Shown here piece after piece: positions 11,172 to 49,692 of a stretch of 61,021 bases of DNA; position 1 is the first letter of the stretch; the number at the start of each line of letters is the position of its first letter. Location of the stretch: NCBI GenBank assembly GCA_036735985.1, contig DAINNH010000004.1, positions 1 through 61,021 of the forward strand, in the 5' to 3' direction. Under the pieces are notes generated by a model. The model was not told where the DNA came from. It did no database searches and was given only the letters and a program-made list of their open reading frames with translations. A program made the position numbers and the translations under genes. Source of the DNA: Candidatus Alectryobacillus sp. (GTDB lineage Bacteria; Bacillota_I; Bacilli_A; RFN20; CAG-826).

Positions 11172-11173
11172 AA

Positions 11174-12712: not shown

Positions 12713-12729
12713 ACATATCTCTCCTTTTT

Positions 12730-12765: not shown

Positions 12766-12776
12766 AAATTAATTAA

Positions 12777-16005: not shown

Positions 16006-16006
16006 T

Positions 16007-23100: not shown

Positions 23101-24612
23101 TTATTTCCTCTCAAAGCCAGTGGCTTTCATAAACTTGTCTAAATGCTCAACTTGATTTTCTTTAAAAACAGCTGTATTTTTCAAAATTTCTCTACCGATC
23201 ATCGATATATGATCATAAACTTGTTGATGAATATCCTTACGAATATCGACTTTTTCCTTTAATGCAGCCATCATTTCCTTATGTGGAATAAGATTTGGAT
23301 GTTCAGTTAAATACTCGTTAAGATCTAAATTTTCTGCAAGATACTTCGAAATTAAATCAATTTCGCTTTCTAATCTTCCTGGTAAAATAAATAAACCCTG
23401 AGCTTCAATTAAACCTATACCCTCTTTCTTTATATTAAAGTATTCTGGGTGAACATGGAAAATACCTTCAGGATAATCACTAGAAGTGCAATTGCAACGC
23501 AAGATAAGGAATAATTTATAAACGCCATTGTCTTTACGAAGAATAGGTGTAATTGTATTGTGACGAACATCATCATCCATCGCTTTAATACCTAATTCAA
23601 TATCATCAAAACCTTTCCAAGAGGTAAGAATTTCATGATAAATTTCTTTTAATTCATTCACATCTTTTGTTTCAATTTCAATACATGAGTTAAACCAATC
23701 AAGATAAAAAACCTTACTATTCTTAACTTTTTGGGAAAAATATTCAAATTTTGGTCCGGCTAACATGACTGGTAAAATATGCGTTCCACCTTGATAGTGT
23801 TCATGAGATAAAATTGATCCACCAACAATTGGTAAATCGGCATTTGAACCGAGAAAGAAATGTGGATACTGATCAACAAAAGAAACTAAGTTATCCAAAG
23901 TACCTTCATTAATTACCATTGGTGAATGAACTTTGTTTAATAAGATAATATGATTTTCATAGTATACATAAGGTGATAATTGAAGATACCATTCATTTCC
24001 GTTTAAAGTTACAGAAACTAAGCGGATTGAAGAGCGTGGAGCTTTATTAAATTTGCCATAGTAGCCTTCGTTTTCATAACAAAGCACACACTTAGGGCAA
24101 TCATCACTCGTTGACTTTATCAATAAAGCTTTAGCAATATCCGCATTTGATTTCTCAGGTTTTGATAAATTAATTGTATATTCGACTAAATTTTTATCAA
24201 ATATTGTATTCCATTTAATATTTTTATTAATATTAAATAAATTAATATAATTGGAATTGACCCCTAATTTTTTTAAATAAAGAATCGCATCAAAATCAGA
24301 TTTTACATAAAGATCATTAAATTCTTTATCAACCATAGATGGCATAGGTTCAAGCAAACCAAACACTTTATCAATTAAAGCTTCAATTTGAAAGTCATCG
24401 GTTTCAATTTTATTATCAATGATATAATTTCGAAGAATTATGTAAGCGTCGTGTGGTGAGACGGCTGCAATCGAGAGCGTATCAGCTACAAAAGGCTCAT
24501 TATCGTACGTTTTTAAAAGATGAAAAATTTCGTTGCGAACATAGTTAGCGTCTAGTTTATTTAAATTTAAATTTAATAAACCATAATTAATTAAGGTATC
24601 AATTACAGTCAT
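23101..24612 (-). CDS. galT: Galactose-1-phosphate uridylyltransferase (class II, Firmicutes type)
   Basis: TINLSKPEK, CPKCVLC.ENEGY, LQ.SPYVYY.NH, GSNADLPIVGGSILSHEHYQGG, GIFH.HP, KKEGIGLIE. Confidence 0.93.
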   Translation of the reverse strand: MTVIDTLINYGLLNLNLNKLDANYVRNEIFHLLKTYDNEPFVADTLSIAAVSPHDAYIILRNYIIDNKIETDDFQIEALIDKVFGLLEPMPSMVDKEFNDLYVKSDFDAILYLKKLGVNSNYINLFNINKNIKWNTIFDKNLVEYTINLSKPEKSNADIAKALLIKSTSDDCPKCVLCYENEGYYGKFNKAPRSSIRLVSVTLNGNEWYLQLSPYVYYENHIILLNKVHSPMVINEGTLDNLVSFVDQYPHFFLGSNADLPIVGGSILSHEHYQGGTHILPVMLAGPKFEYFSQKVKNSKVFYLDWFNSCIEIETKDVNELKEIYHEILTSWKGFDDIELGIKAMDDDVRHNTITPILRKDNGVYKLFLILRCNCTSSDYPEGIFHVHPEYFNIKKEGIGLIEAQGLFILPGRLESEIDLISKYLAENLDLNEYLTEHPNLIPHKEMMAALKEKVDIRKDIHQQVYDHISMIGREILKNTAVFKENQVEHLDKFMKATGFERK

Positions 24613-24614
24613 AA

Positions 24615-25595
24615 TTATTTACCAATAACTTCAAATGAATAGTCGATGAAGTTAGTCCTTGTTGTATTAGCTTTAATAAACATTTTATCGAAATTAAATG
24701 GTTCAATTTGTGGTTCAATCGCAATTGCATCATATTGTTTATCATATCCACGTCCTAAGATATGATCCCCAACTTTAGCATAGTTATTGCTATAGCAAAC
24801 AACGCCATCATAATCGGTAGAAATATTAATAATAAACTTATCACCTTTTAAACAAACAGCTTGTTCCCCACTATTTAAGCGCCATGGATGATCATAACCA
24901 CAAGCATGATGAGGATAAGTTTTACGAATATCGTTTCCAATTAATTTAGGAGTTCTAAAATCAAAAACACTATCAACTGGAATATATTTCTTTAAAAGAA
25001 GCTGTTCATCCAATAAGCCAAATGAATCAGCTTTAATTTGAAGCGTTTCTTGTAATACCTTTTGATCAGGTGAGGCATTAAAATAACTGTGATTAGTTAA
25101 AGAATAGAAAGAATCATGTTTCGGGGTGATGCTTTGCGTGCAAATCATATGTAAACTTCTCTTGAAAATCTTATAAGAAATAACAATTTGTGCATCAAAG
25201 AGACCATCATTTACAGTATCGACATAATCACGGGTAAATGTAATAGTTTTAGAATCAAATTTTTCATCAATTTTTTCTATATTAAATTCAAGAAAACTGA
25301 TTCCCTCTTCACCGCTATGAAGAACATTATTATTTTCGTTTGGTTTATTTTTTAATTGGATATTGCCAAATTTTGAAACAATTTTTCCATCTTTAATACG
25401 TCCGCAAATTGGTCCAACAGTTTTGCCATAATATGAGGTGGAAGTAATAAATTTTGCCTTATGCATTGGTGAAAATGTAACGTAATTGTCATCAATCTTA
25501 ATAGAATAAATAGCGGCACCGAAATTGCAAAACATAACTTCCATGCCACAATTGTTCTTCACTTTTACATACTTTGCATGTGTTAAACTATCCAT
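24615..25595 (-). CDS. galM: Aldose 1-epimerase (mutarotase)
   Basis: YYGKTVGPICGRI, LHSG, LTNHSYFN, GYDHPW, AIAIEPQ. Confidence 0.88.
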   Translation of the reverse strand: MDSLTHAKYVKVKNNCGMEVMFCNFGAAIYSIKIDDNYVTFSPMHKAKFITSTSYYGKTVGPICGRIKDGKIVSKFGNIQLKNKPNENNNVLHSGEEGISFLEFNIEKIDEKFDSKTITFTRDYVDTVNDGLFDAQIVISYKIFKRSLHMICTQSITPKHDSFYSLTNHSYFNASPDQKVLQETLQIKADSFGLLDEQLLLKKYIPVDSVFDFRTPKLIGNDIRKTYPHHACGYDHPWRLNSGEQAVCLKGDKFIINISTDYDGVVCYSNNYAKVGDHILGRGYDKQYDAIAIEPQIEPFNFDKMFIKANTTRTNFIDYSFEVIGK

Positions 25596-25598
25596 AAA

Positions 25599-26804
25599 CT
25601 AATCCTCCTTAATATATTTGTTTATAATAGATATCAATTCTTTTTCACTAAATAAAATCGGAACTGGATAAAGTGGAGTTGATTCATGATAGGCTTTAGA
25701 TGCAATCACACTAACATCTTCATTCTTAATTTCTTTTATTCTCTTTGGCAGGCCAAACTTAGTATTTAAACCTTCAATATAAGAAATAAATAATTCTGCA
25801 TTAGCTTTTGGTTCATCGCTAATACCTGCTAATCCTATATATTTGGCAACTTTGTCCAATTTAACGTAGATTCGCTTGAAATCTTGTCGAAGGAAAATAG
25901 GTAACAAAATAGCACATAAATAACCATGTGGTAAATTATAAAGAGCGCCACAGGCATGGGCAATAGCATGAACATATCCAACATAGGCTCGAGTGAAAGA
26001 CATACCTGCATAAAAAGATGCATTTAATAAATTAGATTTCGCAACTAAGTTTGTTGGATTATCATAGGCAACTTCCAAGTTTTCATAAATTAATTTAATG
26101 GCTTTAAAAGACAATTCACGAGTTTCTTTCGTCGAAGAATTGCCAATATATGATTCAAGAGCATGTGTTAAGGCATCAAGTGCTGTTGTCGAAAGTACAC
26201 TATTTGGGAGTTTTGCAATTAATTTTGGCTCGAAAACTGCATATTTGGGAATAAGGTGTAAATCATTAATTGAAAATTTTTCATGAGTAACTTCATTGCG
26301 GACAACGGCCGCAATAGTTGCTTCACTGCCTGTTCCACAAGTTGTTGGAATTGCAATCATAAGAGGAATATTATGATGCACTTTAAAAAGACCTTTAAAG
26401 GCGTTTAAATCTTTCTTAGGATTCACAATTAAAGCTCCGATGGCCTTAGAAGCATCCATTACACTGCCGCCACCAACCGCAATTAAAGAATCACATTTAT
26501 TATCTAAATAAATTTGTTTACCTTCATAAACCTCTTTAAATGTTGGATTAGGTTCAACATCTAAAAACTCACTAAAATCAATATTAGCCGCTTTTAGTGT
26601 CTCTTCTAATTCCACAAGTAAACCAAACTTTTTAATGTTTGAATCACTCACAATTAAACAATGATGTTTATGTTCATTATTTAAAATATTAGAACATTCA
26701 GCAACCGCTTGAAAAGCGATAGGCTTACGAAAACGAAGAAATTTCGCGGCAATTCTCATGATAAATTGGAAACTTCGGACATTAAATCTTTTAAATGCAT
26801 TCAT
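25599..26804 (-). CDS. Iron-containing alcohol dehydrogenase family protein
   Basis: VEPNPT, AVGGGSVMDASK, IPTTCGTGSEAT, DALTHALE, GYVHAIAH, HGYLCA. Start ATG 26804 from SD GGTGGAG. Confidence 0.88.
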   Translation of the reverse strand: MNAFKRFNVRSFQFIMRIAAKFLRFRKPIAFQAVAECSNILNNEHKHHCLIVSDSNIKKFGLLVELEETLKAANIDFSEFLDVEPNPTFKEVYEGKQIYLDNKCDSLIAVGGGSVMDASKAIGALIVNPKKDLNAFKGLFKVHHNIPLMIAIPTTCGTGSEATIAAVVRNEVTHEKFSINDLHLIPKYAVFEPKLIAKLPNSVLSTTALDALTHALESYIGNSSTKETRELSFKAIKLIYENLEVAYDNPTNLVAKSNLLNASFYAGMSFTRAYVGYVHAIAHACGALYNLPHGYLCAILLPIFLRQDFKRIYVKLDKVAKYIGLAGISDEPKANAELFISYIEGLNTKFGLPKRIKEIKNEDVSVIASKAYHESTPLYPVPILFSEKELISIINKYIKED

Positions 26805-26808
26805 AATT

Positions 26809-29478
26809 TTACTCCACCGATTTAAGGGATTCGACCATAGGAACACGACGAATAGAGAATGACAATAAGATATTTACAACTAAAGCCGTTCCGACACTAA
26901 TAATAGCTGATAAGCCATACGTTAAATTTGAAATATAGTAAATAAATGAGACTAAGTTATTTTGGTTAACACTTAGCACCAAGTACTCCATTGGGAAGCC
27001 AAGCAAAAGTCCAAATATCGTACCAACACACGTGAGAATTATAACCTCGTAAATTAAGCTTTTCGCAATCTCAATTGTTGAGAAGCCCAAAACTTTTAAT
27101 GTTGCTATTTCACGCATACGTTCTTTAAAGTTAAGGAGAGCTAAATTTATTAAACAAACCACTGCTAGCAAAAGTGCAAAGATTTTAACCGTATTGGTCA
27201 TTTCTTTAACACTACTAACATACCCTTCAATTGTATCACGCATTTGTTTTTTTGTAATGACAAGTGATAACCCAGATATATTACTAGTAATATATTCGCC
27301 CATTTTTTCAACGCTTTCAACACTTACACTATCACCAACATCAATAAAGCACGCAGTTGGCTTATTATATAATTCAGTAAAATCACTATCCTCACTATGA
27401 ACAAAAATAGCCGACATCGAAAATCTTTCATAGATTATACTAATTGTTTTATGCAATACTTTACCATTTAAAGATATATTTAAAGTATCACCTTCACTTA
27501 CTTTTAAGTCTTCGGCTTTACTCTTTGGTAACATAATCGTATTTGCTGGGAAAGTACAATCAAAAACTTTATCATCATAGGTCTTTTGATTTACTGAATA
27601 TATTGAGGCATTATATTGGCCACTTTCACCAAATTGAATGGTACTAATTCCAACACCAACTGGATAAATTTCTTTAATCGTTCCAATTTTAGCTAATTCA
27701 GTATCATTTTTAATAGTATCAGCAATAGTCGAACTCGCAGCCGAATAAGTAATTGAAATATCTGAATCATAATACATCTTTAAATCGTGGGAAATTCCAT
27801 AATTAATGGTATCTTCAATACCAAAACCACACACCAATAAGGAGGTACAACCCATAATGCCAATTACGACCATTAATGATTTTGTAAAATAAACACGGAT
27901 GTTTCTTAAAGCAATCTTCAATGACATAAAAGACATAATTTTTGGAGAATTTCTTCGTGGCTTCATCTTCATTCTTGGAGATTGTGGAAGCATTGATTGA
28001 GCTGGCGTAATATGTAATTCTTTTCCTAAAATAATTATCGTAATAAGTGAAACCATTACAATAATTGAAACCACCATAATTAAGGCAGCAAAGACTGGGA
28101 AATAGTAGGTAGTTGAAGTAATCGAATAAAGAATTTGATACTTAATATCCATAATGTAAGGAATAATGCATGGCCCTAGCACACAACCTAAAATACATCC
28201 GATTAAAGATAAAGTTACGCCGGTAAAAAGATAATGAGTCATAATTTCATGATTAGTTAAGCCTAAAGCTTTTAAAGTGCCAATAACGTTATGATCTTTT
28301 AGAATTAATTGAGTAATAGTGGTAATTGAAATAAGCACAGCCACCAACAAGAAGACTAACGGAAAAACAAAAGAAAGAGCCGCAGCCTGATCGATATCGT
28401 TTTGAATTGAAACGTTGGATGGTAAATTTTCTAAATCAGTAAGATAAAGCATATTACCAGTCGAGGTTGTAGAAGCGGCTTTACCTTTAAAATAAGTACG
28501 AATTTTATCACAAGCAGCAGGTAAATCAACTTTCGCTGTTTTTGAAAACTTCACAAGAATCTGATTATACATATCTCGATTAGGAGCATAGTTGTATATA
28601 GTTTCAATATTTTCTTTAGTAATATTTGGATAATCATTGTGAATTGCATTATAGAAATCATCTAATAAACCTACCAAGAAAGTTTTTTTGGATAATACTG
28701 AGATAGGCGAACTATTTTTACCACTAGCAATATTTTCAGGATGGTCCATAAAATTAGTTACTTTAGCATTAAAGTTGATTGTCGTAAATTCAGTTTCTGT
28801 AAAGAATTTATGGACTGAAGCTTTCATATTTTTAACTTGTTCTTCACTAAATAAAACATGGTTTGGATTAAAATCAGCCATAACTTGGTCGATATTGGCA
28901 AGCATTGTATTTTCCATAGCTGTTTTCGAACTAGAAATATCGATTGAAATTGGAATCTCTGTTCCAATTTTAATCGTTTTGGCTCCCGCTGTTTTATTGT
29001 ATAAAGCAACAGTTGTACGATCGACTAAAAAGAATTCACCATTATTAGAATTTAAGATGTCACTCTTTATATAAGCCCCACTTTTATTTGGATCATCAAT
29101 ATAAATATTACTGGCACGATCGATATGCGGAAAATAGTCCGTTATCGCTAAATTTGAATTAGCTGATTGAACTTTACTTGGCATTATCAAACGTTTTTCA
29201 CTAGTAATGTCATATTCATATGGAAAGAGATTTTTGATATTTTCTTCATCTTTATCCTTTTCATTAATCAAATCATAGGTCAAGAAAATATCAGCAACAT
29301 TTCCATTATCATACATGTCATTTACACGAGCTTTTAAAGAAGAGTAGTTCGCTTGAAGGCCAACAAAAAGAGTAACCGCGATACCGATAATAAAAACAAT
29401 TGAGATGAATTGTTTTACCGAGGATTTTAAATCGCGAAATGTCTTCTTAAATAACATCTTTAAAACATCTTTATCCAT
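26809..29478 (-). CDS. FtsX/MacB-family ABC exporter permease (two FtsX halves)
   Basis: N-terminal TM, two large extracellular domains, IGTLKALG and REIATLKVLGF repeats. Confidence 0.88.
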   Translation of the reverse strand: MDKDVLKMLFKKTFRDLKSSVKQFISIVFIIGIAVTLFVGLQANYSSLKARVNDMYDNGNVADIFLTYDLINEKDKDEENIKNLFPYEYDITSEKRLIMPSKVQSANSNLAITDYFPHIDRASNIYIDDPNKSGAYIKSDILNSNNGEFFLVDRTTVALYNKTAGAKTIKIGTEIPISIDISSSKTAMENTMLANIDQVMADFNPNHVLFSEEQVKNMKASVHKFFTETEFTTINFNAKVTNFMDHPENIASGKNSSPISVLSKKTFLVGLLDDFYNAIHNDYPNITKENIETIYNYAPNRDMYNQILVKFSKTAKVDLPAACDKIRTYFKGKAASTTSTGNMLYLTDLENLPSNVSIQNDIDQAAALSFVFPLVFLLVAVLISITTITQLILKDHNVIGTLKALGLTNHEIMTHYLFTGVTLSLIGCILGCVLGPCIIPYIMDIKYQILYSITSTTYYFPVFAALIMVVSIIVMVSLITIIILGKELHITPAQSMLPQSPRMKMKPRRNSPKIMSFMSLKIALRNIRVYFTKSLMVVIGIMGCTSLLVCGFGIEDTINYGISHDLKMYYDSDISITYSAASSTIADTIKNDTELAKIGTIKEIYPVGVGISTIQFGESGQYNASIYSVNQKTYDDKVFDCTFPANTIMLPKSKAEDLKVSEGDTLNISLNGKVLHKTISIIYERFSMSAIFVHSEDSDFTELYNKPTACFIDVGDSVSVESVEKMGEYITSNISGLSLVITKKQMRDTIEGYVSSVKEMTNTVKIFALLLAVVCLINLALLNFKERMREIATLKVLGFSTIEIAKSLIYEVIILTCVGTIFGLLLGFPMEYLVLSVNQNNLVSFIYYISNLTYGLSAIISVGTALVVNILLSFSIRRVPMVESLKSVE

Positions 29479-29481
29479 TTT

Positions 29482-30189
29482 TTACCACTCTATTTCATCA
29501 ACTTCTTTTGGAGAAGCAACCATTTCATCACTTATAATTTTGCCATCCGCCAAACGAATTAAATGATTAGCGATATTAGCGATATTCGAATTGTGTGTTA
29601 CAACAACTACCGTAAATTTTTCTTCTTTAGCTAACTTTTTAAGTAAAGTTAAGATATTTTTACCTGTTGCACTATCAAGAGCTCCAGTTGGTTCATCACA
29701 AAGAAGAAGAGAAGGCATCTTTACGATTGCTCGCGCAATGGCAACTCTTTGTTGTTCACCACCAGATAGTTGACCTGGAAAATTATTAACACGATTCCCT
29801 AGACCGACGGCATCAAGAGCATCTTTGGCATCCATATGTGGCTGATTTTTACAGGCCGATTCTTGGAGCATAACATTTTCAAGAGCCGTTAATGATGGAA
29901 TTAAATTATAAAATTGAAAAACAAAACCGATTTGAGAACGACGAAATTTTCCTAAGTCAGCACTTTTTAAAGAAGTAATTTCTTTGCCATTTAATTCATA
30001 CGTCCCTGATGTAGCTTTATCCATTCCACCCAAAATATTTAAAACAGTAGATTTTCCAGCGCCACTTGCGCCAAGAATAACCACGAATTCACCTTTTTCA
30101 ATTTTAAAAGAAACCCCATTAAGTGCATTAATGAGTGTATCACCAGAAACATAAGTTTTAACTACATTATTAATCTCAAGAAACGCCAT
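29482..30189 (-). CDS. ABC exporter ATPase (LolD/MacB-type)
   Basis: [46 protein letters not shown]. Confidence 0.93.
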
Positions 30190-30200
30190 ATTTTACTCCT

Positions 30201-31754
30201 TTAAAACATTGCTGCAAATACTCTAATTAGAGCTCGAAAAGCACGAATAAATATATTAGTCTTTAAAGCTTCAGGAAGAGTATAGGGTATTGAATTACTA
30301 AACATATAATCAAAATCATTTTTAATATCATTTATACAATCACATTTATACATAAAAACCGCATTTTCCATGTGAAGATAGAGACTTCTTAAATCTAAGT
30401 TAATTGTACCAACGCAAGCATAGGTGTCATCGGTTAAGAAACATTTATCATGAATAAAGGAATCTTTATAACGATAAATTTTTACTCCAGCTCTTAATAA
30501 AACTGGTAAATAAGAAAGAGTCAATTGATAAGTAATTGCTTTATCAGGAACTCCTGGAATAACAAGGCGAACATCAACACCGCTATGTGCTGCATTTGTT
30601 AAAGCGACAATCATATCATTATCAGGTACGATGTAAGGCGAACAGATATATACTGATTTCTTAGCTTTATAAATTAAGTCTAAATAAACATTTTCGCCAA
30701 TAGATTCATAATCGTAAGGAATATCTCCAAAAGTTTGGATATAACCACTTGGATTAATTTTGTCAGTTAGGAGTTCTTTATTTTTCTCGTAAGAATAAAG
30801 GTCGAAATCTTCCATTTTCTTTGAAATATTAATCCATTGGGAAAGAAATAAAGAAGTCATACCAAAAACAGCTGGACCCTTAAGCATTAAACAGTTATCT
30901 TTCCATTCATTGCCAAATTTCTTTACAACATTTACGTATTCATCAGCTAAATTAATCCCACCGGTAAATCCAACCACTCCATCAATAATCATAAATTTTC
31001 TATGATCACGGTTGTTCATTTTTAAAGTAATAATTGGGTAATAACGATTGAACACGTAACATTTAATGCCATAACTTTCCAGTTCATGATTAAAGAACCA
31101 CGGAACTTTTGACATACATCCAAAGTCATCATAAATAAGACGAACATCAACGCCTTCTTTAACTTTAGCCTTTAATATTTCAAGTATAGAATTAAAGAAT
31201 TCGCCACGCTCAATAATAAAATATTCAATAAAAATAAATTTCTTAGCTTTTCTTAGTTCTTCAAGCATAACCGGCCAAACTTTTTGACCTAATTCAAAAT
31301 AAGTTGCCTCACTTTGGGCATAACAGGTCGTTTTGCTTGATTTGTATATTGAAGACGAAATTCGATAAGCTGTAACATCTTTTTTTTCTAATTCTTTTAA
31401 AGAATTGTCTTCGTAGGAATATTTCGCAATCGAATTTCGATACATCCCCGTTTTTCTTTTTTGGTGTTTCGTTGTACGTTTGTTGGCGAACAAAAACCAT
31501 AATACAAAGCCACCACCAAGAGGTAATAAAGCAATGCATGAAATCCAAGCTAGTTTATATGGACCAGCACTTTGACCATTAATAATGAAAATAATGCCCA
31601 AAATATCAAGCAAATAAAATGCCAAAACTGTCCAAACACCATAAGATGTTGGAACAAGATACAAACAAAATAGCACAATTAATACTAATTGTGAAAAGAG
31701 AATTAACCCTAATATAAAGAAACGTGAAGTGATAAATTTAAGGAATTTTCTCAT
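30201..31754 (-). CDS. cls: Cardiolipin synthase (phospholipase D family)
   Basis: N-terminal TMs, two HKD motifs: RDHRKFMIID and FIHDKCFLTDD...GTINLD.RS. Confidence 0.9.
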   Translation of the reverse strand: MRKFLKFITSRFFILGLILFSQLVLIVLFCLYLVPTSYGVWTVLAFYLLDILGIIFIINGQSAGPYKLAWISCIALLPLGGGFVLWFLFANKRTTKHQKRKTGMYRNSIAKYSYEDNSLKELEKKDVTAYRISSSIYKSSKTTCYAQSEATYFELGQKVWPVMLEELRKAKKFIFIEYFIIERGEFFNSILEILKAKVKEGVDVRLIYDDFGCMSKVPWFFNHELESYGIKCYVFNRYYPIITLKMNNRDHRKFMIIDGVVGFTGGINLADEYVNVVKKFGNEWKDNCLMLKGPAVFGMTSLFLSQWINISKKMEDFDLYSYEKNKELLTDKINPSGYIQTFGDIPYDYESIGENVYLDLIYKAKKSVYICSPYIVPDNDMIVALTNAAHSGVDVRLVIPGVPDKAITYQLTLSYLPVLLRAGVKIYRYKDSFIHDKCFLTDDTYACVGTINLDLRSLYLHMENAVFMYKCDCINDIKNDFDYMFSNSIPYTLPEALKTNIFIRAFRALIRVFAAMF

Positions 31755-31844
31755 GTCTTTATTTTAGCATTATAGATAAGTAATAACTATGAAAAAAGGC
31801 ACATAAAATATAATATTTATATCTAGGATATAACTTGTTCAAAA

Positions 31845-34800
31845 TTATAATTTGGTACTATTTAATTTAGAGTTTATTTTTTTTATGAAAGATTCATTAA
31901 TTTTCATATTTTTACGATCAAAAGTCATTATTCCGTTTACTTCATCTTCTATGTCTGTAAATTGAGTATAAATACAACCACATAAACCATTAGGAATAGC
32001 TGGAAAAATTTGTTTTTCAAATAATGACTTATAGCCGAGTGATAATTCATAGTTTGTGTCAAATTTCTTATATCCGTAAGGTTTTTTACCATAGAAACTA
32101 TCATTCAAATACAATGCATATCCGCCAAATTCCGATAATAAAATCGCACGTGTTTTGTCTGGATGTTTTATGTTGATTTTTTTGAAATAAATATGTTTTG
32201 ATACAAAATCACCACACTTTTGATCATACCAGCCAGAGTTAGCATCAACTAAGCGAGTGCTATCACTGCTTAATAATTCCTCATATACTTTTCTAGTATC
32301 AAATTGACCCCAACCTTCATTAAAAATTGTATACATAATGACAGATGGATGATTATAAACAAAATCAACGGTTAAAAGCATATTTTGCATAAACATTAAA
32401 CGTCCATCTACATTCTGGCGACCGAATAAACGATATTTGTTATCTTTAATCTTTAATGGAACAATTGCTGGTGCGCTAATAATAAGTTTATTATAATTCT
32501 CACCACCATTAACAAAATCTTGAATAACCAGAATACCAACTTTATCACAATAGTAATAGAAACGATCATTTTCAACTTTTATATGTAAGCGAATGGTATT
32601 GAATCCTAAATCTTTAATTTTTTGGATATCAAAAAGCATATCTTCATCTTTTTGAGGAGTTAAATTGCCTTTATAATAATAAGCTTGATTCAATACACCA
32701 TTTAAAAATATCATATTATTATTCAAGAAAACTCTACGGATCCCATTCGAATCTTTATCAATTTTTATCTCACGCATTCCAAAATATGTTTCAACTACAT
32801 CGTCTTTAAAAGTAATGGTTGCATAATAAAGATAAGGAGATTCAGGCGACCAAAACATCGGATTTTTAATGCTGACTTCAGTTTCAACATTACTTGGAAT
32901 CGTGGCTTCAAAATCTTTTCCACTGACAATCACATCACCTTTAACATTACATTTAGCGAAAACACCAACAGTTCCTTTTCCAATATGAGGAGTAAATTTA
33001 ACATATTCAATAAATTCTTTAGGAGTTGATTCTAACCAAACGCTTTTATAAATACCGCTCGAAGTGGTGTACCAAATTCCACCGCGATGGACACGTTGTT
33101 TACCAAAAGCGAAATATGATAAATCACTATAATCTGCTACCTTAACAACAATATCAAAACAACCATCACTAATATCATCGGTAATATCAATTTTAAAATC
33201 AGTATAACCAGAATTATGAATCGTCTTTAGGGCTCCATTAATATAAACCGAAGCAATTTGATCGACACCATCAAAATGTAAAAAAACACGGCCTTTATTG
33301 AAACTATTATCAACAGTAAATACTTTATGATAATAAATGAATTCGCCCTCTTTTAAAACAGCGGAAATATTAGATAGTTCTGATTCAATTGCATATGGAA
33401 CAACAATTTTTCGAGTATAGAAATATGGAAGACGATTTTCAGAAGAAATTTCACAATCCCAGATTCCGTTTAATGAGACATAACTATTACGTTTAAATTG
33501 TGGACGAGGATATTCAGGTAATGGATTCTTGCACTCTTTAAGATTTTGAGGATTTGGATGTAAAATTCCGTTGTTATTGCGATCATTCTTACGATTAATT
33601 TTTAAAGCAAAGATAATTGGAATTATAGACAATAAAGCGATAACCGATGCAAAAATAAATAAATAAGGGGTTGGAAGTTTCGTTGTTCCAGAAATAGCAT
33701 CATCATATGTATTTGTGGACATAGAATCAATAATAGCCTTACCAATAAATGGACCTGTACACATTGGTATAGCTACTTGGAAAATCATACGAATTCCTTG
33801 GAAAGAGCCTTCTTCACCGACTGGCGTATAATCACGAATATTTGCATTAATGGCCCCATTTTCGGCCATATAACCAGCCATCATAATAGATCCAACAACA
33901 ATAAATATCGCTACTTGATTTGCACCAACAAAAAACATTGAAAGCAATCCAACTGCAAAAATAAGACAGGATGGAATAAGAGCACGCAATTTTCCAAACT
34001 TATCCATTATAAAGCCAAATAAAACTGAGAATATTGCGCCTAAAATTAAAACACTTCCTAGCGAAATCGAGAACCAAATACCACTAATCTGCAGAGTTTC
34101 TTGAACATAAATCATTAAATAAGGCATAAAAACATTGGTTGCAATACAATAAAATAAATAAACGGAAAGGAGAACATAAAGAATTTTATTTTTCTTTATA
34201 TTTTCAATTTTGAAACCATAAAATAAGTTATTAAAGAACGAACTATGTTCTTCATCAACAACTTTTTCTTCTTTCGGAAGAAGAAAAATCGCAGCGATTC
34301 CTGCACTAAATGTAATACCGCCAATAATATAAAAGAAAATATCCCAGTGAGCTGGAGTAGTAGATGTCGAAACTGTAAGATTATTTAAAATGCCAAAAAC
34401 GAGGAGCATAGCAATAAGAGGGAAGATAGATAATACACCTTCAACCCTACCACGATTTTTGCTATTCGTTGTTTTTGTAACGTAAGCATTAAAACATGCA
34501 TCGTTGGCTGAACTACCAAAGAAAGTCATAATACAATCAAGACTAATAACAAGCAAAGAAGCAATCTTAGCAGCTTCTAAAGCCGAAACAGCAAATTGAG
34601 TTTCTAAAGTATCAACTTTAATAAAGCCAAAAGCTAAAGTCGAAATGCCCCATAAAATATATCCAACAACGATAAAGATTTTCTTTTTACCAACTTTATC
34701 ACTGAATGATCCAACTAATAGCGTTGTAATAACCGCAACAATCGCACTTGCTGCTTCAGTAATTGCGATATATAAAGAATAATCATTCCCAACACCGAAA

Positions 34801-34952
34801 GAAAAAATAAAGGTGTTTAGGTACATATTTTCAATAACCCAAGCAATTTGTCCAATTAAACCAATAACAATGTAAGATAACCACATGCGTGGCTTTATTC
34901 GACTTTCTCTGTCCTTTGATTTATCGTATAGTGCAGCGTTGTCTTTTTTCAT
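31845..34952 (-). CDS. Fusion: MFS sugar transporter + GH2 glycoside hydrolase
   Basis: N-half about 12 TM MFS (GSFSDKVGKK, RGRVEG, GFIMDKFG); C-half PEYPRPQ, LNGIW, LHFDGVDQ, GIYKSVWLE, GFNTIRLH, NHPSV..Y..FNEGW, SEFGG in one uninterrupted frame. Start ATG 34952 from SD AGGAGG (GTG 34958 possible). Confidence 0.88.
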   Translation of the reverse strand: MKKDNAALYDKSKDRESRIKPRMWLSYIVIGLIGQIAWVIENMYLNTFIFSFGVGNDYSLYIAITEAASAIVAVITTLLVGSFSDKVGKKKIFIVVGYILWGISTLAFGFIKVDTLETQFAVSALEAAKIASLLVISLDCIMTFFGSSANDACFNAYVTKTTNSKNRGRVEGVLSIFPLIAMLLVFGILNNLTVSTSTTPAHWDIFFYIIGGITFSAGIAAIFLLPKEEKVVDEEHSSFFNNLFYGFKIENIKKNKILYVLLSVYLFYCIATNVFMPYLMIYVQETLQISGIWFSISLGSVLILGAIFSVLFGFIMDKFGKLRALIPSCLIFAVGLLSMFFVGANQVAIFIVVGSIMMAGYMAENGAINANIRDYTPVGEEGSFQGIRMIFQVAIPMCTGPFIGKAIIDSMSTNTYDDAISGTTKLPTPYLFIFASVIALLSIIPIIFALKINRKNDRNNNGILHPNPQNLKECKNPLPEYPRPQFKRNSYVSLNGIWDCEISSENRLPYFYTRKIVVPYAIESELSNISAVLKEGEFIYYHKVFTVDNSFNKGRVFLHFDGVDQIASVYINGALKTIHNSGYTDFKIDITDDISDGCFDIVVKVADYSDLSYFAFGKQRVHRGGIWYTTSSGIYKSVWLESTPKEFIEYVKFTPHIGKGTVGVFAKCNVKGDVIVSGKDFEATIPSNVETEVSIKNPMFWSPESPYLYYATITFKDDVVETYFGMREIKIDKDSNGIRRVFLNNNMIFLNGVLNQAYYYKGNLTPQKDEDMLFDIQKIKDLGFNTIRLHIKVENDRFYYYCDKVGILVIQDFVNGGENYNKLIISAPAIVPLKIKDNKYRLFGRQNVDGRLMFMQNMLLTVDFVYNHPSVIMYTIFNEGWGQFDTRKVYEELLSSDSTRLVDANSGWYDQKCGDFVSKHIYFKKINIKHPDKTRAILLSEFGGYALYLNDSFYGKKPYGYKKFDTNYELSLGYKSLFEKQIFPAIPNGLCGCIYTQFTDIEDEVNGIMTFDRKNMKINESFIKKINSKLNSTKL

Positions 34953-34976
34953 AATCACAACCTCCTAATATATAAA

Positions 34977-35624
34977 TTAAATATTAAAAATATTAATAAT
35001 ATCGGTAAGAGAGTCAATAATAATCGATTTAGTTTTTTCTTCTAATAATTTACGCGAATTATGCCCATGGCAATATGATACGGCTTTAAATCCTAATTCT
35101 TTAGCTACTTCATAATCATGGATTGTATCCCCAATCATTATCGTTTCATCTTTATTAATAGGATGTTTCAAGAAGTATTCCTTGCCAGAATCAACTTTTG
35201 ATCCAGCAAATTTATTGTCAAAAGCAATGATGTCATCGAATTCTTCTAAAATTCCATAGCTACTTAATTGAGCTGTAATTAATGGACGATATGAAGCAGT
35301 TAAAATAACAACATGGATACCCTTTTTATGAAGATAATCTAAAAGTTCTTTAACATGAGGCGAAAGCTTACACTCTTCATTATGTGAACTATAGTAAGCA
35401 ATAAAATAATCAGAAACAAGAGAATAATTTATTTTAGTAAAATCAAACCCTATTTTTTCATAGTACGGGCGGACAGGAAAAGAGAAAGTATCCAGGTAGT
35501 ACTCTTTAGTAATTATATTATTAGGGTTAATGAATTTCTCCACGCAAGCATTCAAAGCTTCAAAAGACACATCGACATCATCAAGGATGGTGCCGTTAAA
35601 ATCAAAAACGATGTTTTTAATCAT
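34977..35624 (-). CDS. HAD-family hydrolase (phosphoglycolate phosphatase-like)
   Basis: FDFNGTILDD motif I, LTAS motif II, K, IGDTIHD motif IV. Confidence 0.85.
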   Translation of the reverse strand: MIKNIVFDFNGTILDDVDVSFEALNACVEKFINPNNIITKEYYLDTFSFPVRPYYEKIGFDFTKINYSLVSDYFIAYYSSHNEECKLSPHVKELLDYLHKKGIHVVILTASYRPLITAQLSSYGILEEFDDIIAFDNKFAGSKVDSGKEYFLKHPINKDETIMIGDTIHDYEVAKELGFKAVSYCHGHNSRKLLEEKTKSIIIDSLTDIINIFNI

Positions 35625-35629
35625 GTAAA

Positions 35630-35887
35630 TTAAGCTTTACGAATTTTGCCTTTTTTAGAATGTAACACAAAACCGCGATCATTTTTTTCACCAAGCTCTT
35701 TAGCATAATCTTGAGCTTCTTTTTGAGTGCGGAAGAGTTTAATAGCTTTAGCACCATTTGCAAGTTTTACTTCCCAAGCTGTCTTATCAGCATTTTGAGT
35801 AACGTGATAGCAGTTGATAACTTTTTTCTCTTTTGCAGGTGCTTCTTCTTTGGTTGCAGGTTTTGCAGTTACTTTTTTCTTTTCCAT
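35630..35887 (-). CDS. DUF2188-like small protein
   Basis: YHV...WEVK..G..A...F.TQKEA...AK.......LH...GKIR pattern. Confidence 0.75.
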   Translation of the reverse strand: MEKKKVTAKPATKEEAPAKEKKVINCYHVTQNADKTAWEVKLANGAKAIKLFRTQKEAQDYAKELGEKNDRGFVLHSKKGKIRKA

Positions 35888-35895
35888 TTTGTTCT

Positions 35896-38688
35896 CTATT
35901 CTCCTTTTCTGTTAAGTTCTTCCTTAACAATATTTCTAAAAGTAGTTTCGTCTACTTTTTTAGAACCAACTTTCTTACTTCTATTATATAACCATTTAAA
36001 GAAAATTATAATCTCGTGAATTATAAGAGGAATCATCGATACTAACACAAGATCGATCCATTGACGCCAATCGAGGTGTGTGCAATTGAAAATTTCATTA
36101 AAGGCATCAACTTCTGTTAATAAAACAGGGAAAATAAACGCAAAGATAAATGAAACGAGGAATAAATAATTACGTCCTTTAAATACTCTAAAGGCACTCT
36201 TCTTAATATTAGACATATTGAGCATATGGAATAATTCCGATAATCCAAGAACAACAAAGGCACATGTTTCAGATTCACGTAACAAAACTGGATCACTATT
36301 AAGAATGCTAATAATGGCATTTAAATCAAAACCAACACGTTGGACAGGATAGAATAAGAAAGCTAATAAGGTAATTAAACCAATAATTGTTCCATAGAAG
36401 AATAAGGTAAAATAACCACCATTTGCAAATAATCCTTCCTTTGGATCACGTGGTTTTTGCTTCATAATATCTGGATCTTTACGATCACTGCCTAAAGCAA
36501 TAGCTGGAAGTGAATCAGTAATTAAGTTAACAAATAAAATATGAATAGCTGCTAAAGGTGAAGGTAATCCTAAACAAACAGCCACGACCATGCAAATAAC
36601 TTCACCAATATTACTTGATAATAAGAATAAAATAGTCTTTTTAATGTTCTCATAAATACCACGGCCCTCTTCCACTGCTTTTTCAATGGAAGCAAAGTTA
36701 TCATCGCTAAGAACCATATCAGCGGCACCTTTCGCCACATCGGTTCCTGTAATACCCATCGCAATACCGATATCAGCACTCTTTAAAGAAGGAGCATCAT
36801 TAACACCATCACCGGTCATCGCTACAATATTGCCATTAGCTTTAAAGGCTTTAACAATTGAAACTTTATTTTCTGGAGAAACACGAGCATAAACACGAGT
36901 TGTTTTAACTTTCTCTCTTAATTCGTCAAACGATAAACTATTAATTTCATCGCCTGACATACATTGGTTTAAAGATTCAACAATACCTAATTCTTTAGCA
37001 ATAGCAAAAGCTGTATCTTTATGGTCGCCTGTAATCATTACAGTCTTAATTGAAGCATTCTTAAAGGCTTTAATAGCAGGTTTAGCTTCTTCACGAGGAG
37101 GATCAACCATGCCTACAAGACCATAAAATACTAAATCTTCTTCCTTTAACACTTTGTTACTAGAAAATGCCAAAGCTAAGACACGAAGGGCTTTAGCTGA
37201 CATTTCAGCTGCAGCACGATTTATATCTTCGACATCCTTATTTGTAATAGGGACAATCTTGCCTTTTTTATAAATAGAGGTTGTATGTTTTAAAATTTGA
37301 TCCATCGCACCCTTAGTGTAGTTGAGAAATTCTTTATCACTAATAGAGTGTTGAGTTGACATCATTTTACGAACACTATCAAATGGTAATTCATTTAAAC
37401 GAGGCGTTTTATGTTCAAGCACTGACTTTTTATTACCATATAAATTTGCAAATTCAACTAATGCAATTTCAGTAGGATCGCCATACGATTTATCATGTTC
37501 AATTGAAGCATTTGAACATAAGCAAAGACCATTTGCTAAATATTCAAGAACATCTTTATTTTCATTAAAAAAGGTTTTACTTACTTTTCTACCATCAGCA
37601 TAGGCTTCAACAACAGTCATTTTATTTTGGGTTAAAGTGCCAGTTTTATCAGAACAGACAACAGTAACAGCTCCTAATGTTTCAACACTAGGAAGTTTAC
37701 GAACAATAGTATTTGCCTTAACCATTCGTTGAACGCCCAAAGATAAAACAATGGTAACAACAGCAGGTAACCCTTCAGGAACGGCAGCAACAGCTAAAGA
37801 AATAGCTGTAATAAACATTGTAATAACACTAGTTAACATATTCTTCGATTGTAAATAAGCTTGAAGAATAGCAATAATAAAGAATAAGATAACTAAACCA
37901 ATAGTTATAAATCCTAATAATTTTGATAAACTAGCCAATTTCTTTTGAAGTGGTGTGCTTTCATCTTCGTTTGAAGTAAGCATGGTAGCAATACGTCCAA
38001 TTTCTGTATTCATACCAGTTGATATGGCAACGGCTTCACCATGTCCATAAGCAATAGGCGTAGACATATAAGCTAGATTAACACGATCACCAATGCCAAC
38101 TTCTTCAGACAAAACAACTTTGGCATCCTTTTCAACAGGAACAGATTCGCCTGTTAAAGATGATTCATCAGCTTTTAAATTAACACTAGTAATTAAACGG
38201 CAATCGGCAGGGATTTGGTTACCTTCTTCAAGAATTAAAACATCACCTGGAACTACTTCTTCGGCGGGAATGGTTTTAATATCGCCATTTCTTCTTACAA
38301 TAGCAGTAGGTGCGGCTAATTTCTTTAAAGCATCTAATGATTTTTCAGCTTTAATTTCTTGAATCGTTCCTATTGTTGCGTTCATAATAACAACAATTAA
38401 AATAACGATAGGATCAGCATAATCAATTGTAGCTACGCTCCAAACGTTTGTTGCTGGATTGTAAAATGAAACTACAAAAGAGATGATGGCGGCAGCAAAA
38501 AGAATATAAATCATAGGATCATTCATTTCACCTAAAAAGATGCGAATCCAAGATTTTTTCTTTTTCTCTGTCAGTTTATTGAGACCGTATTTTTGACGTC
38601 TCTTTAATACTTCTTCTTCGCTTAGACCATTATTAAAATTGGTCTCTAGCTCAGTCAACACTTCTTGACAGCTTTTGTTCTCGTACAT
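35896..38688 (-). CDS. P2A-type cation (Ca2+/Mn2+) transporting P-type ATPase (YoaB/YloB-like)
   Basis: ESSLTGES, AVAAVPEGL, DKTGTLT, KGA, MITGDH, ARVSPE, MTGDGVNDAP; preceded by a Mn2+ riboswitch. Confidence 0.93.
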   Translation of the reverse strand: MYENKSCQEVLTELETNFNNGLSEEEVLKRRQKYGLNKLTEKKKKSWIRIFLGEMNDPMIYILFAAAIISFVVSFYNPATNVWSVATIDYADPIVILIVVIMNATIGTIQEIKAEKSLDALKKLAAPTAIVRRNGDIKTIPAEEVVPGDVLILEEGNQIPADCRLITSVNLKADESSLTGESVPVEKDAKVVLSEEVGIGDRVNLAYMSTPIAYGHGEAVAISTGMNTEIGRIATMLTSNEDESTPLQKKLASLSKLLGFITIGLVILFFIIAILQAYLQSKNMLTSVITMFITAISLAVAAVPEGLPAVVTIVLSLGVQRMVKANTIVRKLPSVETLGAVTVVCSDKTGTLTQNKMTVVEAYADGRKVSKTFFNENKDVLEYLANGLCLCSNASIEHDKSYGDPTEIALVEFANLYGNKKSVLEHKTPRLNELPFDSVRKMMSTQHSISDKEFLNYTKGAMDQILKHTTSIYKKGKIVPITNKDVEDINRAAAEMSAKALRVLALAFSSNKVLKEEDLVFYGLVGMVDPPREEAKPAIKAFKNASIKTVMITGDHKDTAFAIAKELGIVESLNQCMSGDEINSLSFDELREKVKTTRVYARVSPENKVSIVKAFKANGNIVAMTGDGVNDAPSLKSADIGIAMGITGTDVAKGAADMVLSDDNFASIEKAVEEGRGIYENIKKTILFLLSSNIGEVICMVVAVCLGLPSPLAAIHILFVNLITDSLPAIALGSDRKDPDIMKQKPRDPKEGLFANGGYFTLFFYGTIIGLITLLAFLFYPVQRVGFDLNAIISILNSDPVLLRESETCAFVVLGLSELFHMLNMSNIKKSAFRVFKGRNYLFLVSFIFAFIFPVLLTEVDAFNEIFNCTHLDWRQWIDLVLVSMIPLIIHEIIIFFKWLYNRSKKVGSKKVDETTFRNIVKEELNRKGE

Positions 38689-42385: not shown

Positions 42386-43990
42386 ATGTATAAAGTAATA
42401 ATTGTTGATGATGAATATCCAGTTCGCGAAAGACTATTAGATCTTTTAGACAAACTAAAAGATTCTTTTGAAGTAGTCGGTTCTTTTGAAAATGGATATG
42501 ACGCGCTAGTTAGTGGCATAACGCTTTCTCCTGATTTAATTATTACCGACATTAAAATGCCATATATTGATGGTATTGAACTTATTAAAAGAGCTAAATT
42601 GGAGCTACCACTTGTCGAAAGTATTATTATTAGTGGTTTTGATTCGTTTGATTATGCTAAACAAGCAATATCTCTAGGAGTAGTAGGATATATTTCAAAA
42701 CCAATCACTTTTGATGAATTAAAAACTACTCTATATAAAGCTAAAGATGAACTTGACAACAAGTACAGCGTTGATAAAAACATTCAAGATTTGCAAAAAC
42801 AAGCTGATTCTGCTTTGCTTTTAATTCAAGAAAACGATTTATGTCGCTTAATTACAATGAAAGATTTATCCGATAATATGATTAATAAATTAGAAGAAGA
42901 TCATATTAAATTAGACTTTTCGTTTTTAACTTTAGGAATTTTTGATTTAGATGATGATGCTGATTCTTTATCGAATGATCAAGTTGAACTTGTTATTTTT
43001 TGTTTAAGAAAATATATATCTGAAACTTTTTCAGGTATATCCAAATACTCATTTTATTTCTTTACTCGTGGCAACGAATCTGGAATTTTTATTCTTTCAG
43101 ACAGTAGCGTTACGAAAAAAGAATTACAGCAAATCCTCAGTGAAATTACTGCAAAAATTGAAAAAACCTGCAAAACCTCAATATCTATTGGTATAAGTGA
43201 ATTTGTTAATGCCCAAATAAATGGTATTAAATCAGTTAGTTTCCGTAAACTATATCGTCATGCTAAAAGAGCTTTGGAATACCGTACAATTGTTGGCGGC
43301 AATATCGTTTTGTTCTTTAGTGATGTCAATATTAATAAATCTTTTACAGGTAAAATTGATGATAACGAATATAAGAATGTTAGTTATGAAATTTTATATG
43401 GAAAAATTGATGCAGCAAAAGATAAAATAAAATCTATCTTAAATACCGTTACTCCTGAATCCTTTAAAGATACGTATTATTTTATTTTAAATAACCTACT
43501 GGATGCTATTTTAAAATCGTGTGTTTCTTTACAAACTCTTTACGAAACATATATGCCACACATTGATATTGTTCAAAAACTATTTACAACAAAAACATTT
43601 GATGCTACCGAAGATTTATTGGATCAATTAGTTGATAATATTGCAAAGATAAATGGATCTTCTCGTCAAAATAGAGTTGATTCTTCATTTAATCAAATAA
43701 AGAACTATATCGAAACGAATTACAAAAATTCTTTGCTATCGCTTGAAGATGTTGCGAATGAATTAGGCTATAGTATTTCCTATATTAGTGCAATATTAAA
43801 AAAGAACAATACTTCTTTTACAAAATATCTTACTGATGTTAGAATGCAGCAGGCTACTATTCTTTTGGCAAAAGAAGAGAATAAATTAATTAATATTTCA
43901 AACGAAATTGGATATGAAGATCCTTATTATTTTTCACATTGTTTTAAGAAGTATTTTGGAGTCTCCCCACAAGAGTATCGTAAAAAATGA
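42386..43990 (+). CDS. YesN-type response regulator (receiver + AraC HTH)
   Basis: IIVDDE, DLIITDIKMP.IDG, ISGF..F.YA, KPI; C-terminal GYEDPYYFSHCFKKYFGVSPQEYR. Confidence 0.93.
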   Translation: MYKVIIVDDEYPVRERLLDLLDKLKDSFEVVGSFENGYDALVSGITLSPDLIITDIKMPYIDGIELIKRAKLELPLVESIIISGFDSFDYAKQAISLGVVGYISKPITFDELKTTLYKAKDELDNKYSVDKNIQDLQKQADSALLLIQENDLCRLITMKDLSDNMINKLEEDHIKLDFSFLTLGIFDLDDDADSLSNDQVELVIFCLRKYISETFSGISKYSFYFFTRGNESGIFILSDSSVTKKELQQILSEITAKIEKTCKTSISIGISEFVNAQINGIKSVSFRKLYRHAKRALEYRTIVGGNIVLFFSDVNINKSFTGKIDDNEYKNVSYEILYGKIDAAKDKIKSILNTVTPESFKDTYYFILNNLLDAILKSCVSLQTLYETYMPHIDIVQKLFTTKTFDATEDLLDQLVDNIAKINGSSRQNRVDSSFNQIKNYIETNYKNSLLSLEDVANELGYSISYISAILKKNNTSFTKYLTDVRMQQATILLAKEENKLINISNEIGYEDPYYFSHCFKKYFGVSPQEYRKK

Positions 43991-46714: not shown

Positions 46715-46743
46715 TTTTTTATAAAATTAATATCTTAAAAATT

Positions 46744-46778
46744 TTCCACAAAGACAAAAAAGTCTTGTGGAATTTTTT
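46744..46778 (+). terminator. Intrinsic terminator
   Basis: TTCCAC-A-AAGAC/GTCTT-GTGGAA stem followed by T6. Confidence 0.75.
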
Positions 46779-46810
46779 ATGAATTTAATAGAGATTTTTC
46801 TATTCTTAAT

Positions 46811-46824
46811 TGTAAGCGCTTTCA
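46811..46824. promoter_or_regulatory. cre / LacI-family operator upstream of mglB
   Basis: TGTAAGCGCTTTCA fully matches TGWAANCGNTNWCA and lies just before a TACAAT -10 (46826-46831). Confidence 0.75.
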
Positions 46825-46898
46825 ATACAATATTAACGATAAGATGATAGTCCTAGAGACATCATCGAAAATAAGGAATTATAGGAGGAAAATTTTTA

Positions 46899-48113: not shown

Positions 48114-48130
48114 TTAATTAGATTAATTAA

Positions 48131-48160
48131 CATCATAGGTGGTGCAAACCACCTATGATG
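48131..48160 (+). terminator. Strong hairpin between mglB and mglA (partial terminator / stabiliser)
   Basis: 13-bp perfect stem CATCATAGGTGGT/ACCACCTATGATG with GCAA tetraloop. Confidence 0.75.
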
Positions 48161-48182
48161 CTTATTTTTAAAAGGAGAAGAT

Positions 48183-49679: not shown

Positions 49680-49692
49680 TAAGGAGAATCTT

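Follow-up and report, generated by a model that had tools for sequence, protein, structure and literature searches.

An MFS transporter–GH2 glycosidase fusion in Candidatus Alectryobacillus, a candidate single-chain protein for import and cleavage of small galactofuranosides

The window analyzed here is a 61,021-nucleotide stretch of DNA from Candidatus Alectryobacillus sp. (GenBank assembly GCA_036735985.1, contig DAINNH010000004.1, positions 1 to 61,021 of the forward strand). Its minus strand encodes a polypeptide that joins a transporter of the major facilitator superfamily (MFS) to a glycoside hydrolase of family GH2 (Table 1). The open reading frame (ORF) at this site, 31845–34958 (−), begins at a GTG codon and comprises 1037 residues. 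The true start is most likely the ATG at 34952, two codons further on, because a strong AGGAGG ribosome-binding site precedes it at a spacing of 8 nucleotides. The resulting protein has 1035 residues, the same length as that called for the corresponding gene in a public JGI contig. The host, an uncultured member of the Bacilli, has DNA low in G+C (about 31%), and its BipA is 73–75% identical to proteins labeled "Bacilli bacterium" and "Candidatus Onthovivens". Judged from the sequence, a 3.1-kb ORF with two strong domain matches cannot have arisen in such DNA by chance. Pfam places MFS_1 in the N-terminal part and GH2_N, GH2, and GH2_C in the C-terminal part of one chain. This domain map, together with the unbroken frame seen in the ORF listing and on inspection of the sequence, bears out, in every detail open to checking, an earlier reading made from the DNA letters alone (the sequence-only reading), which had described an uninterrupted frame of ~1035 residues encoding a single-chain MFS–GH2 fusion.

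Table 1 Features of the fusion gene and sugar-related genes of the window. ORF1110 is the Streptomyces β-D-galactofuranosidase discussed in the text; Galf, galactofuranose; TM, transmembrane.
Feature	Position	Strand	Remarks
MFS–GH2 fusion coding sequence, complete	31845–34952	−	1035 residues + stop
Ribosome-binding site AGGAGG	34961–34966	−	8-nucleotide spacer to ATG start
MFS transporter domain	33582–34904	−	residues about 17–457; 12 TM helices
TM1 motif GQxAWxxENMY	34821–34862	−	invariant in homologue alignment; contains E41
Motif-A-like GxxSDKxGKKK	34680–34712	−	GSFSDKVGKKK, residues 81–91
Basic N/K-rich cytoplasmic linker (predicted) RNNNGILHPNPQNLKECKNP	33522–33581	−	residues 458–477, ~20 residues
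GH2 enzyme	31848–33521	−	residues 478–1035; begins at conserved LPEYPRPQ
K618, Y628	33069–33101	−	align with ORF1110 K212, Y228, ligands of O3/O6 of Galf (PMC11627007)
N878-E879, "NE" acid/base motif (FNEGW)	32316–32321	−	aligns with ORF1110 N463/E464 (PMC11627007)
E941, predicted nucleophile (SEFGG)	32130–32132	−	aligns with ORF1110 E530 (PMC11627007)
YTQFTDIEDEVNG segment with E1004 and T996	31932–31970	−	E1004 aligns with ORF1110 E594, O5/O6 ligand of Galf (PMC11627007)
galK	21896–23098	−	
galT	23101–24612	−	
galM	24615–25595	−	
Sugar ABC transporter, solute-binding protein and two permeases	10197–14072		binding-protein-dependent

In numerous relatives of this gene, the two halves are separate genes parted by a mere stop codon or a 4-nucleotide overlap, and a single sequencing error could mimic a fusion. 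Yet it is exceedingly improbable that the ORF stems from a mis-assembly, from a frameshift, or from two genes read through in the manner of a pseudogene, because the frame is intact in an independent contig and the architecture is shared by more than 120 protein clusters. The JGI contig Ga0610560_001357, a separate assembly, is 99.69% identical to the window over 10.7 kb (27821–38565), with 32 mismatches and one gap overall; the fusion gene itself differs by seven substitutions and no insertion or deletion. A search of 5.8 billion proteins retrieved, at E ≤ 1e-10, 787 relatives, of which the best 120 are all about 1000 residues long and match both MFS and GH2 domains of Pfam; they align over 97–100% of the query at 39–53% identity. 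Full-length fusions fall into more than 120 clusters at the 90% identity level, from many samples and taxa, and the spacing between their two halves is conserved. The homologue search suggested in the sequence-only reading thus found full-length relatives in quantity, and the rarity that this reading had implied gives way to a widespread architecture, present as a single ORF at 18 of 80 species-level loci. Where these proteins are named in databases (Erysipelotrichaceae, Oscillibacter, Oscillospiraceae, Dethiobacteria), they are called just "MFS transporter" or "MFS family permease", a label under which more than 100 entries conceal a complete GH2 enzyme.

The N-terminal half matches Pfam MFS_1 over residues 26–395 (E = 1e-42, 146.7 bits). 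The MFS_2/GPH profile (PF13347) gives a weaker match of 31.3 bits (cut-off 27) confined to residues 166–455. Kyte-Doolittle hydropathy identifies 12 membrane helices, the same number as in an AlphaFold model of the whole fusion built on 83 homologues (mean predicted local distance difference test score, pLDDT, 90.3; predicted template modeling score, pTM, 0.78), in agreement with the ~12 helices counted in the sequence-only reading and with the topology check it had proposed. Lys and Arg are enriched at the N-terminus, in loops 2–3, 4–5, 6–7, 8–9, and 10–11, and in the tail past TM12. This positive-inside pattern predicts the N-in, C-in topology standard for MFS proteins and, because it leaves the C-terminus inside, places the GH2 domain in the cytoplasm. 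The same location had been proposed before; the charge pattern, the basic tail after TM12, and the lack of a signal peptide in the separately encoded GH2 relatives all support it.

Between TM2 and TM3, where an MFS protein is expected to carry motif A (G-x-x-x-D-x-x-G-x-K/R-K), the sequence has such a motif. Besides the TM1 motif, residues D139, N150, D151, E171, and R388 are invariant in the alignment of fused homologues. Together with E41, these polar residues in or near the helices are candidate sugar or cation binders. The AlphaFold model also contains a short β-hairpin at residues 415–425 (about 33678–33710), an element uncommon in MFS loops, in the loop that joins TM11 to TM12 on the outer side of the membrane. 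The hairpin is bordered by the conserved Y416 and P427 (TYxDLGxxKxVPTP) and might serve as a lid or a substrate-recognition element.

By profile comparison, the MFS half belongs to a small, discrete subfamily that is not demonstrably GPH or LacY. Searched alone against PDB sequences, the domain has no match at E ≤ 10. A profile of 12 MFS sequences finds marginal matches alone, to LmrP (1.4e-3) and the lactate transporter SfMCT (0.011), and even this profile matches neither MelB nor any other GPH structure in the PDB. NCBIfam matches to a glucuronide transporter (22 bits against a cut-off of 528), sugar-efflux transporters, and metabolite:H+ symporters all lie far under their cut-offs. When 1.84 billion cluster representatives were scanned exhaustively with HMMER, only 890 relatives of the MFS domain emerged at E ≤ 1e-3, of which 166 reached E ≤ 1e-30, and full-length representatives of the subfamily are either 420–510 or about 1000 residues long. 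Since the domain has no close solved or characterized relative, neither its substrate class nor its coupling ion can be read from homology.

The two halves are connected by an N/K-rich linker. Inspection of nucleotides 33522–33581 revealed no stop codon, no in-frame ATG, and no Shine-Dalgarno sequence, which agrees with the previous description of such a linker and of a GH2 domain without a start of its own. The linker varies in sequence among homologues, and in 83 aligned fusions 29–45 residues separate TM12 from the conserved PLxEYPRPQ. In the AlphaFold model it has pLDDT values of 71–84. Its second half, in Clostridia-type fusions, recognizably matches the N-terminus of GH2 proteins encoded by separate genes (LYTPWGExLD..PLxEYPRPQ), and the fusion point therefore coincides exactly with the old gene boundary. 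By this comparison, the linker consists of the MFS C-terminal tail and the N-terminal tail of a once-separate GH2 enzyme.

The C-terminal half is matched by GH2_N at residues 522–646, GH2 at 681–729, and the GH2_C TIM barrel at 743–932, all above their cut-offs, and both Pfam and the resemblance of the AlphaFold model to GH2 structures point to the jelly-roll, Ig-like, and (β/α)8 TIM-barrel domains of this family. Among PDB sequences, the closest is BACCELL_01794 from Bacteroides cellulosilyticus (PDB 7SF2; E = 3.6e-98), followed by ORF1110 from Streptomyces sp. JHA19 (9J6N and 9J6M; about 1e-85) and 7XYR (2e-49); glucuronidases and galactosidases trail at 1e-19 or worse. Foldseek with the AlphaFold model gives the same picture, with target-normalized TM-scores of about 0.9 to 7SF2 and 9J6M and about 0.7 to glucuronidases. 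In the 2025 subdivision of GH2, 9J6M (GH2_18) and 7XYR (GH2_19) belong to "group III", whose reported activities are β-D-galactofuranosidase and α-L-arabinofuranosidase alone (PMC12243196). The relationships found here place the GH2 half of the fusion in this furanosidase clade, and T996 is probably the Thr typical of it (PMC12243196).

In the structure of ORF1110 with an inhibitor, E464 is the acid/base and E530 the nucleophile, and N463, H401, K212, Y228, Y551, and E594 are further ligands; K212, Y228, Y551, and E594 bind O5/O6, by which galactofuranose (Galf) differs from arabinofuranose (Araf) (PMC11627007). With PDB chain indices taken as residue number minus 23 in the alignment, ORF1110 residues K212, Y228, H401, N463, E464, E530, Y551, and E594 align with K618, Y628, H790, N878, E879, E941, Y961, and E1004 of the fusion. 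Seven of these eight are invariant over 83 fused homologues, and Y961 is conserved in at least 90%. As far as sequence can tell, the active site is that of a galactofuranosidase. The likely substrate is a small β-D-galactofuranoside, rather than a classical β-galactoside, because all eight residues that contact the Galf mimic in ORF1110 are kept. The sequence-only reading had recognized a complete GH2 domain with the FNEGW and SEFGG motifs, both of which lie where it put them and align with the catalytic glutamates of ORF1110. Its family assignment also stands, but the generic range it offered (β-galactosidase, β-glucuronidase, or β-galactofuranosidase) is replaced by a closer kinship with 7SF2 and the galactofuranosidase ORF1110.

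We compared 80 loci from species-representative genomes of Bacillota and Actinomycetota and one Treponema metagenome-assembled genome (MAG); most homologues come from gut and rumen habitats. Next to the 18 fused loci, 54 carry MFS and GH2 as adjacent genes in this order, 2 have GH2 before MFS, and 1 has a convergent pair; GH2 stands alone at 5 loci and MFS at 1. All Agromyces and Microbacterium genomes and the Treponema MAG have the split form. The conserved adjacency and shared orientation are those of a transporter/glycosidase cassette, and the junctions of split loci are mostly at −4 nucleotides, with the start overlapping the stop, or at −8, 0, or +1. Split GH2 genes have a ribosome-binding site of their own, a GGAGG-type sequence within the last part of the MFS gene, and their products begin with 7–25 hydrophilic residues ahead of EYPRPQ and show no signal peptide at the N-terminus. 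From these comparisons, the fusion is best seen as a covalent version of an MFS-then-GH2 cassette that is conserved and translationally coupled.

Individual junctions illustrate how close the two forms are. At loci L007 (5930–5935), L012 (4108–4113), and L048 (11315–11320), the MFS stop is directly followed by the GH2 ATG in the same frame, and mutation of a single base of this stop would be enough to restore a fusion; at L009, L015, and L016, the genes are 9–12 nucleotides apart and also in frame. The pair stays together even where it is rearranged. Two Clostridiales MAGs (L021, 9962–13019; L022, 6377–9452) have GH2 before MFS with an overlap of about 35 nucleotides, and the two genes are convergent in a Staphylococcaceae MAG (L060, 9944–13025). 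In a neighbor-joining tree of the GH2 halves, which is distance-based, lacks support values, and is approximate, fused genes fall into at least five separate clades, and one clade of split genes branches from within the fused ones. This suggests that fusion and fission happened repeatedly, and repeated independent fusions in turn suggest a selective benefit. A second MFS gene in the window (16007–17278), which the sequence-only reading had taken together with its GH13 neighbor as an unfused analogue hinting at a fusion route, was rejected as a paralogue, as the two MFS proteins have no significant similarity (E = 0.17). The real counterpart of the fusion is the homologous MFS–GH2 pair of other genomes, present in 57 of the 80 compared.

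The fusion gene is flanked upstream by genes for a P-type ATPase, a DUF2188 protein, and a HAD hydrolase, and downstream by those for a cardiolipin-synthase-like phospholipase D protein and an FtsX-type ABC system. The adjoining P-type cation ATPase gene (35896–38688, −) recurs just in the three closest relatives (L002, 6172–8916; L003; L004) and represents lineage-specific synteny rather than a functional link. Over the 80 loci, no other conserved neighbor was found beyond the MFS/GH2 pair itself, and the Pfam-annotated neighborhoods of three fused homologues show housekeeping genes. Promoter-like sites number 57, which does not exceed the 47 ± 7.5 expected from shuffled sequence, and a scan for terminators gave no convincing candidate in the stretch from the fusion gene to the cardiolipin synthase gene downstream.

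About 6.2 kb downstream, on the same strand and beyond five unrelated genes, lie galM, galT, and galK. The sequence-only reading had noted these genes ~6 kb away and proposed that a β-galactoside could be channeled to them; genes and distance are as it said, but the link is one of proximity alone, which is not conserved elsewhere. Directly upstream of this trio, an Fe-alcohol-dehydrogenase ORF (25599–26846, −) with a GTG start overlaps the 3′ end of the gene for an 889-residue FtsX-type permease (26809–29478, −) by 38 nucleotides, and because of this overlap its start is probably mis-set. The window is rich in carbohydrate genes, which include those for GH77, pullulanase, two GH13 enzymes, galK, galT, galM, and GH32. 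Given the flanking GH13 genes, the ABC transporter at 10197–14072 is possibly one for maltodextrin. At 14305–17278 (−), the second MFS gene is followed by a GH13 α-glucosidase-like gene listed with a GTG start and a 14-nucleotide overlap; an ATG 2 nucleotides past the MFS stop (TAAAATG) is the likelier start.

On the plus strand, positions 42386–52011 hold a sugar-sensing and uptake cluster. It begins with an AraC-type response regulator (42386–43990), a Cache/His_kinase sensor (43987–45702), and a Peripla_BP_4 binding-protein-like gene (45668–46714). A CUT2-type ABC transporter follows, with a Peripla_BP_4 + Peripla_BP_7 binding protein, a two-domain ATPase, and an unusually long ORF of 797 residues whose sole Pfam match is BPD_transp_2 (residues 493–785). 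The TTG start of this ORF overlaps the preceding ATPase gene by 62 nucleotides and may be mis-set. The E. coli galactofuranose transporter YtfQRT-YjfF belongs to the CUT2 class. Elsewhere, an 849-residue protein (5938–8487, −) has an ABC ATPase domain limited to residues 21–195 and about 650 further residues without a Pfam match; two ORFs next to it (4482–5315 and 5227–5901, −) likewise have none.

Taken together, these features favor, with a probability of roughly 0.6, a single polypeptide that imports and cleaves a small β-D-galactofuranoside and passes the galactose to the Leloir pathway. The 12-helix MFS domain would act as a secondary transporter for a small glycoside, most likely a β-D-galactofuranoside such as a Galf-capped di- or oligosaccharide freed from microbial or fungal glycans. 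The tethered cytoplasmic GH2 domain, an exo-glycosidase whose active site points to terminal β-D-Galf, would cleave it just inside the membrane, and the freed galactofuranose would equilibrate to galactopyranose and enter the Leloir pathway via GalM, GalK, and GalT. Import followed by cleavage, already proposed in the sequence-only reading, remains the most economical explanation of an intracellular GH2 enzyme with a linked transporter. As both the predicted topology and the split partners without signal peptides place the enzyme inside the cell, the linked transporter must supply its substrate, and since MFS proteins carry small solutes only, that substrate should be a glycoside of mono- to oligosaccharide size. 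The direction of transport, the identity of the substrate, and any kinetic advantage of the tether are inferred.

Several points weigh against this interpretation. Activity and transport are predictions for every member of the family, the nearest structural relative of the enzyme (7SF2) is itself uncharacterized, and the MFS domain lacks a near solved or characterized relative, its weak family matches including efflux transporters. The gal genes probably stand outside the operon of the fusion gene, and their proximity is not conserved. The gene often sits amid housekeeping genes without a regulator or another sugar-catabolic gene, which is unusual for a nutrient-scavenging cassette. What separates Galf from Araf specificity in GH2 group III, which holds enzymes of both kinds, has not been established (PMC12243196), so the conserved ligands do not prove specificity. 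The same import-and-cleave scheme could thus serve α-L-arabinofuranosides from plant arabinan, arabinoxylan, or arabinogalactan, or some other small glycoside. Araf-oligosaccharides are plentiful in the gut and rumen habitats that supply most homologues, and the rest of the window is geared to plant and storage carbohydrates (GH77, pullulanase, GH13, GH32). We regard this alternative as unlikely, if worth serious attention: the four O5/O6-binding residues of ORF1110, which hold a group absent in Araf, are kept across the 83 homologues (PMC11627007), and no arabinose-catabolic, GH43, or GH51 gene is linked at any locus examined.

A role in envelope housekeeping, in which the protein recycles or trims the cell's own Galf-containing glycolipid, lipoteichoic acid, or wall polysaccharide, or in which the MFS domain exports or flips a cargo processed by the GH2 domain, is a poorer prospect than the arabinofuranosides and appears quite improbable. 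Some MFS proteins, among them LtaA and LplT, have glycolipids or lysolipids as their cargo, wall glycopolymers rich in Galf are found in Agromyces and other Microbacteriaceae, and sugar-efflux transporters are among the weak NCBIfam matches. Some neighborhoods would also suit such a role, with cardiolipin synthase and the FtsX-type ABC system in the window, tmk-holB beside the gene in an Erysipelotrichaceae genome, and glycosyltransferases and a UDP-sugar dehydrogenase nearby in a Dethiobacteria genome, but none of these neighbors is conserved. At E ≤ 1, the PDB matches of the MFS-domain profile include no transporter of glycolipids or lysolipids, and the Pfam-annotated genes of the window include no UDP-galactopyranose mutase. 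Moreover, the Agromyces ORF directly downstream resembles, by eye, a LacI-type repressor, which, if correct, would be typical of a catabolic cassette.

Within the favored scheme of galactofuranoside import and cleavage, covalent fusion would guarantee a 1:1 stoichiometry and co-localization of transporter and enzyme, and the contribution of the tether could lie in either of these or in true channeling. In the strongest version, the GH2 domain would dock with its active site at the point where the MFS domain opens to the cytoplasm, and the substrate would be handed over and hydrolyzed without entering the bulk cytoplasm ("vectorial hydrolysis"). A fixed arrangement of the domains would agree with the pTM of the single-chain model and with a linker that is partly ordered; even so, we consider docking of this kind doubtful. 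If true, uptake would be irreversible in practice, and the protein would be a glycosidase equivalent of group translocation.

In full-text literature searches, we found no paper on an MFS–glycosidase fusion or on a secondary transporter for galactofuranosides, in line with the earlier statement that no characterized transporter has this architecture. A recent review of galactofuranosidases covers stand-alone enzymes only (PMC12290620). The survey of GH2 subfamilies left TM-containing proteins out when it analyzed secretion signals, and fusions to MFS or other transporters are not mentioned in it (PMC12243196). Surveys of enzymes may miss such proteins. Being common in public data rather than peculiar to the window, the architecture is less surprising, yet the characterization of one member becomes more valuable. 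Mammals lack Galf, which is a constituent of fungal and bacterial glycans, and few galactofuranosidases are known; we know of no secondary transporter for Galf-glycosides. If true, the proposed function would give gut and soil bacteria (Oscillospiraceae, Erysipelotrichales-like Bacilli, Agromyces) a dedicated route for galactofuranoside use. If confirmed, the protein would also be a natural single-chain transporter-glycosidase and a compact model for whether covalently coupled uptake and hydrolysis channels substrate.

The enzyme half compares most closely with two solved proteins. ORF1110 shares the three-domain GH2 fold at about 32% identity, with the catalytic pair and six other inhibitor-binding residues alike; it carries a signal peptide for secretion and ends in a CBM42-like domain (PMC11627007), whereas the window enzyme has neither and is tethered to what is predicted to be the cytoplasmic end of a transporter. 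BACCELL_01794 is the best match in both sequence and structure over the whole GH2 part but is a stand-alone protein, deposited as a "β-galactosidase" or "GH2 sugar-binding domain protein"; as it has no reported activity, it adds no functional information. The pairing of a secondary transporter with a cytoplasmic GH2 enzyme is found in E. coli uidA-uidB, which encode a glucuronidase and a glucuronide transporter, and in lacZ-lacY. Their import-then-cleave logic is the one proposed for the fusion, and the split homologues of the fusion share their two-gene layout; the fusion differs in its one chain, its separate small MFS subfamily, and its furanosidase-clade GH2 domain. A soluble cytoplasmic domain at the C-terminus of a sugar symporter has a precedent in LacS of Streptococcus thermophilus, whose IIA-like domain occupies this position, although that domain is regulatory and phosphorylatable and is not a hydrolase of the transported substrate. 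LplT-Aas, a lysophospholipid transporter and acyltransferase that are separate or, in some bacteria, fused, likewise couples an MFS protein to a cargo-processing enzyme at the inner membrane face, with a lipid cargo, a different enzyme chemistry, and no detected sequence relationship. By analogy, the import-and-cleave logic suggested for the fusion would be the classical one of lacZY and uidAB, and LacS and LplT-Aas provide known examples of cytoplasmic additions to sugar transporters and of couplings between MFS proteins and enzymes.

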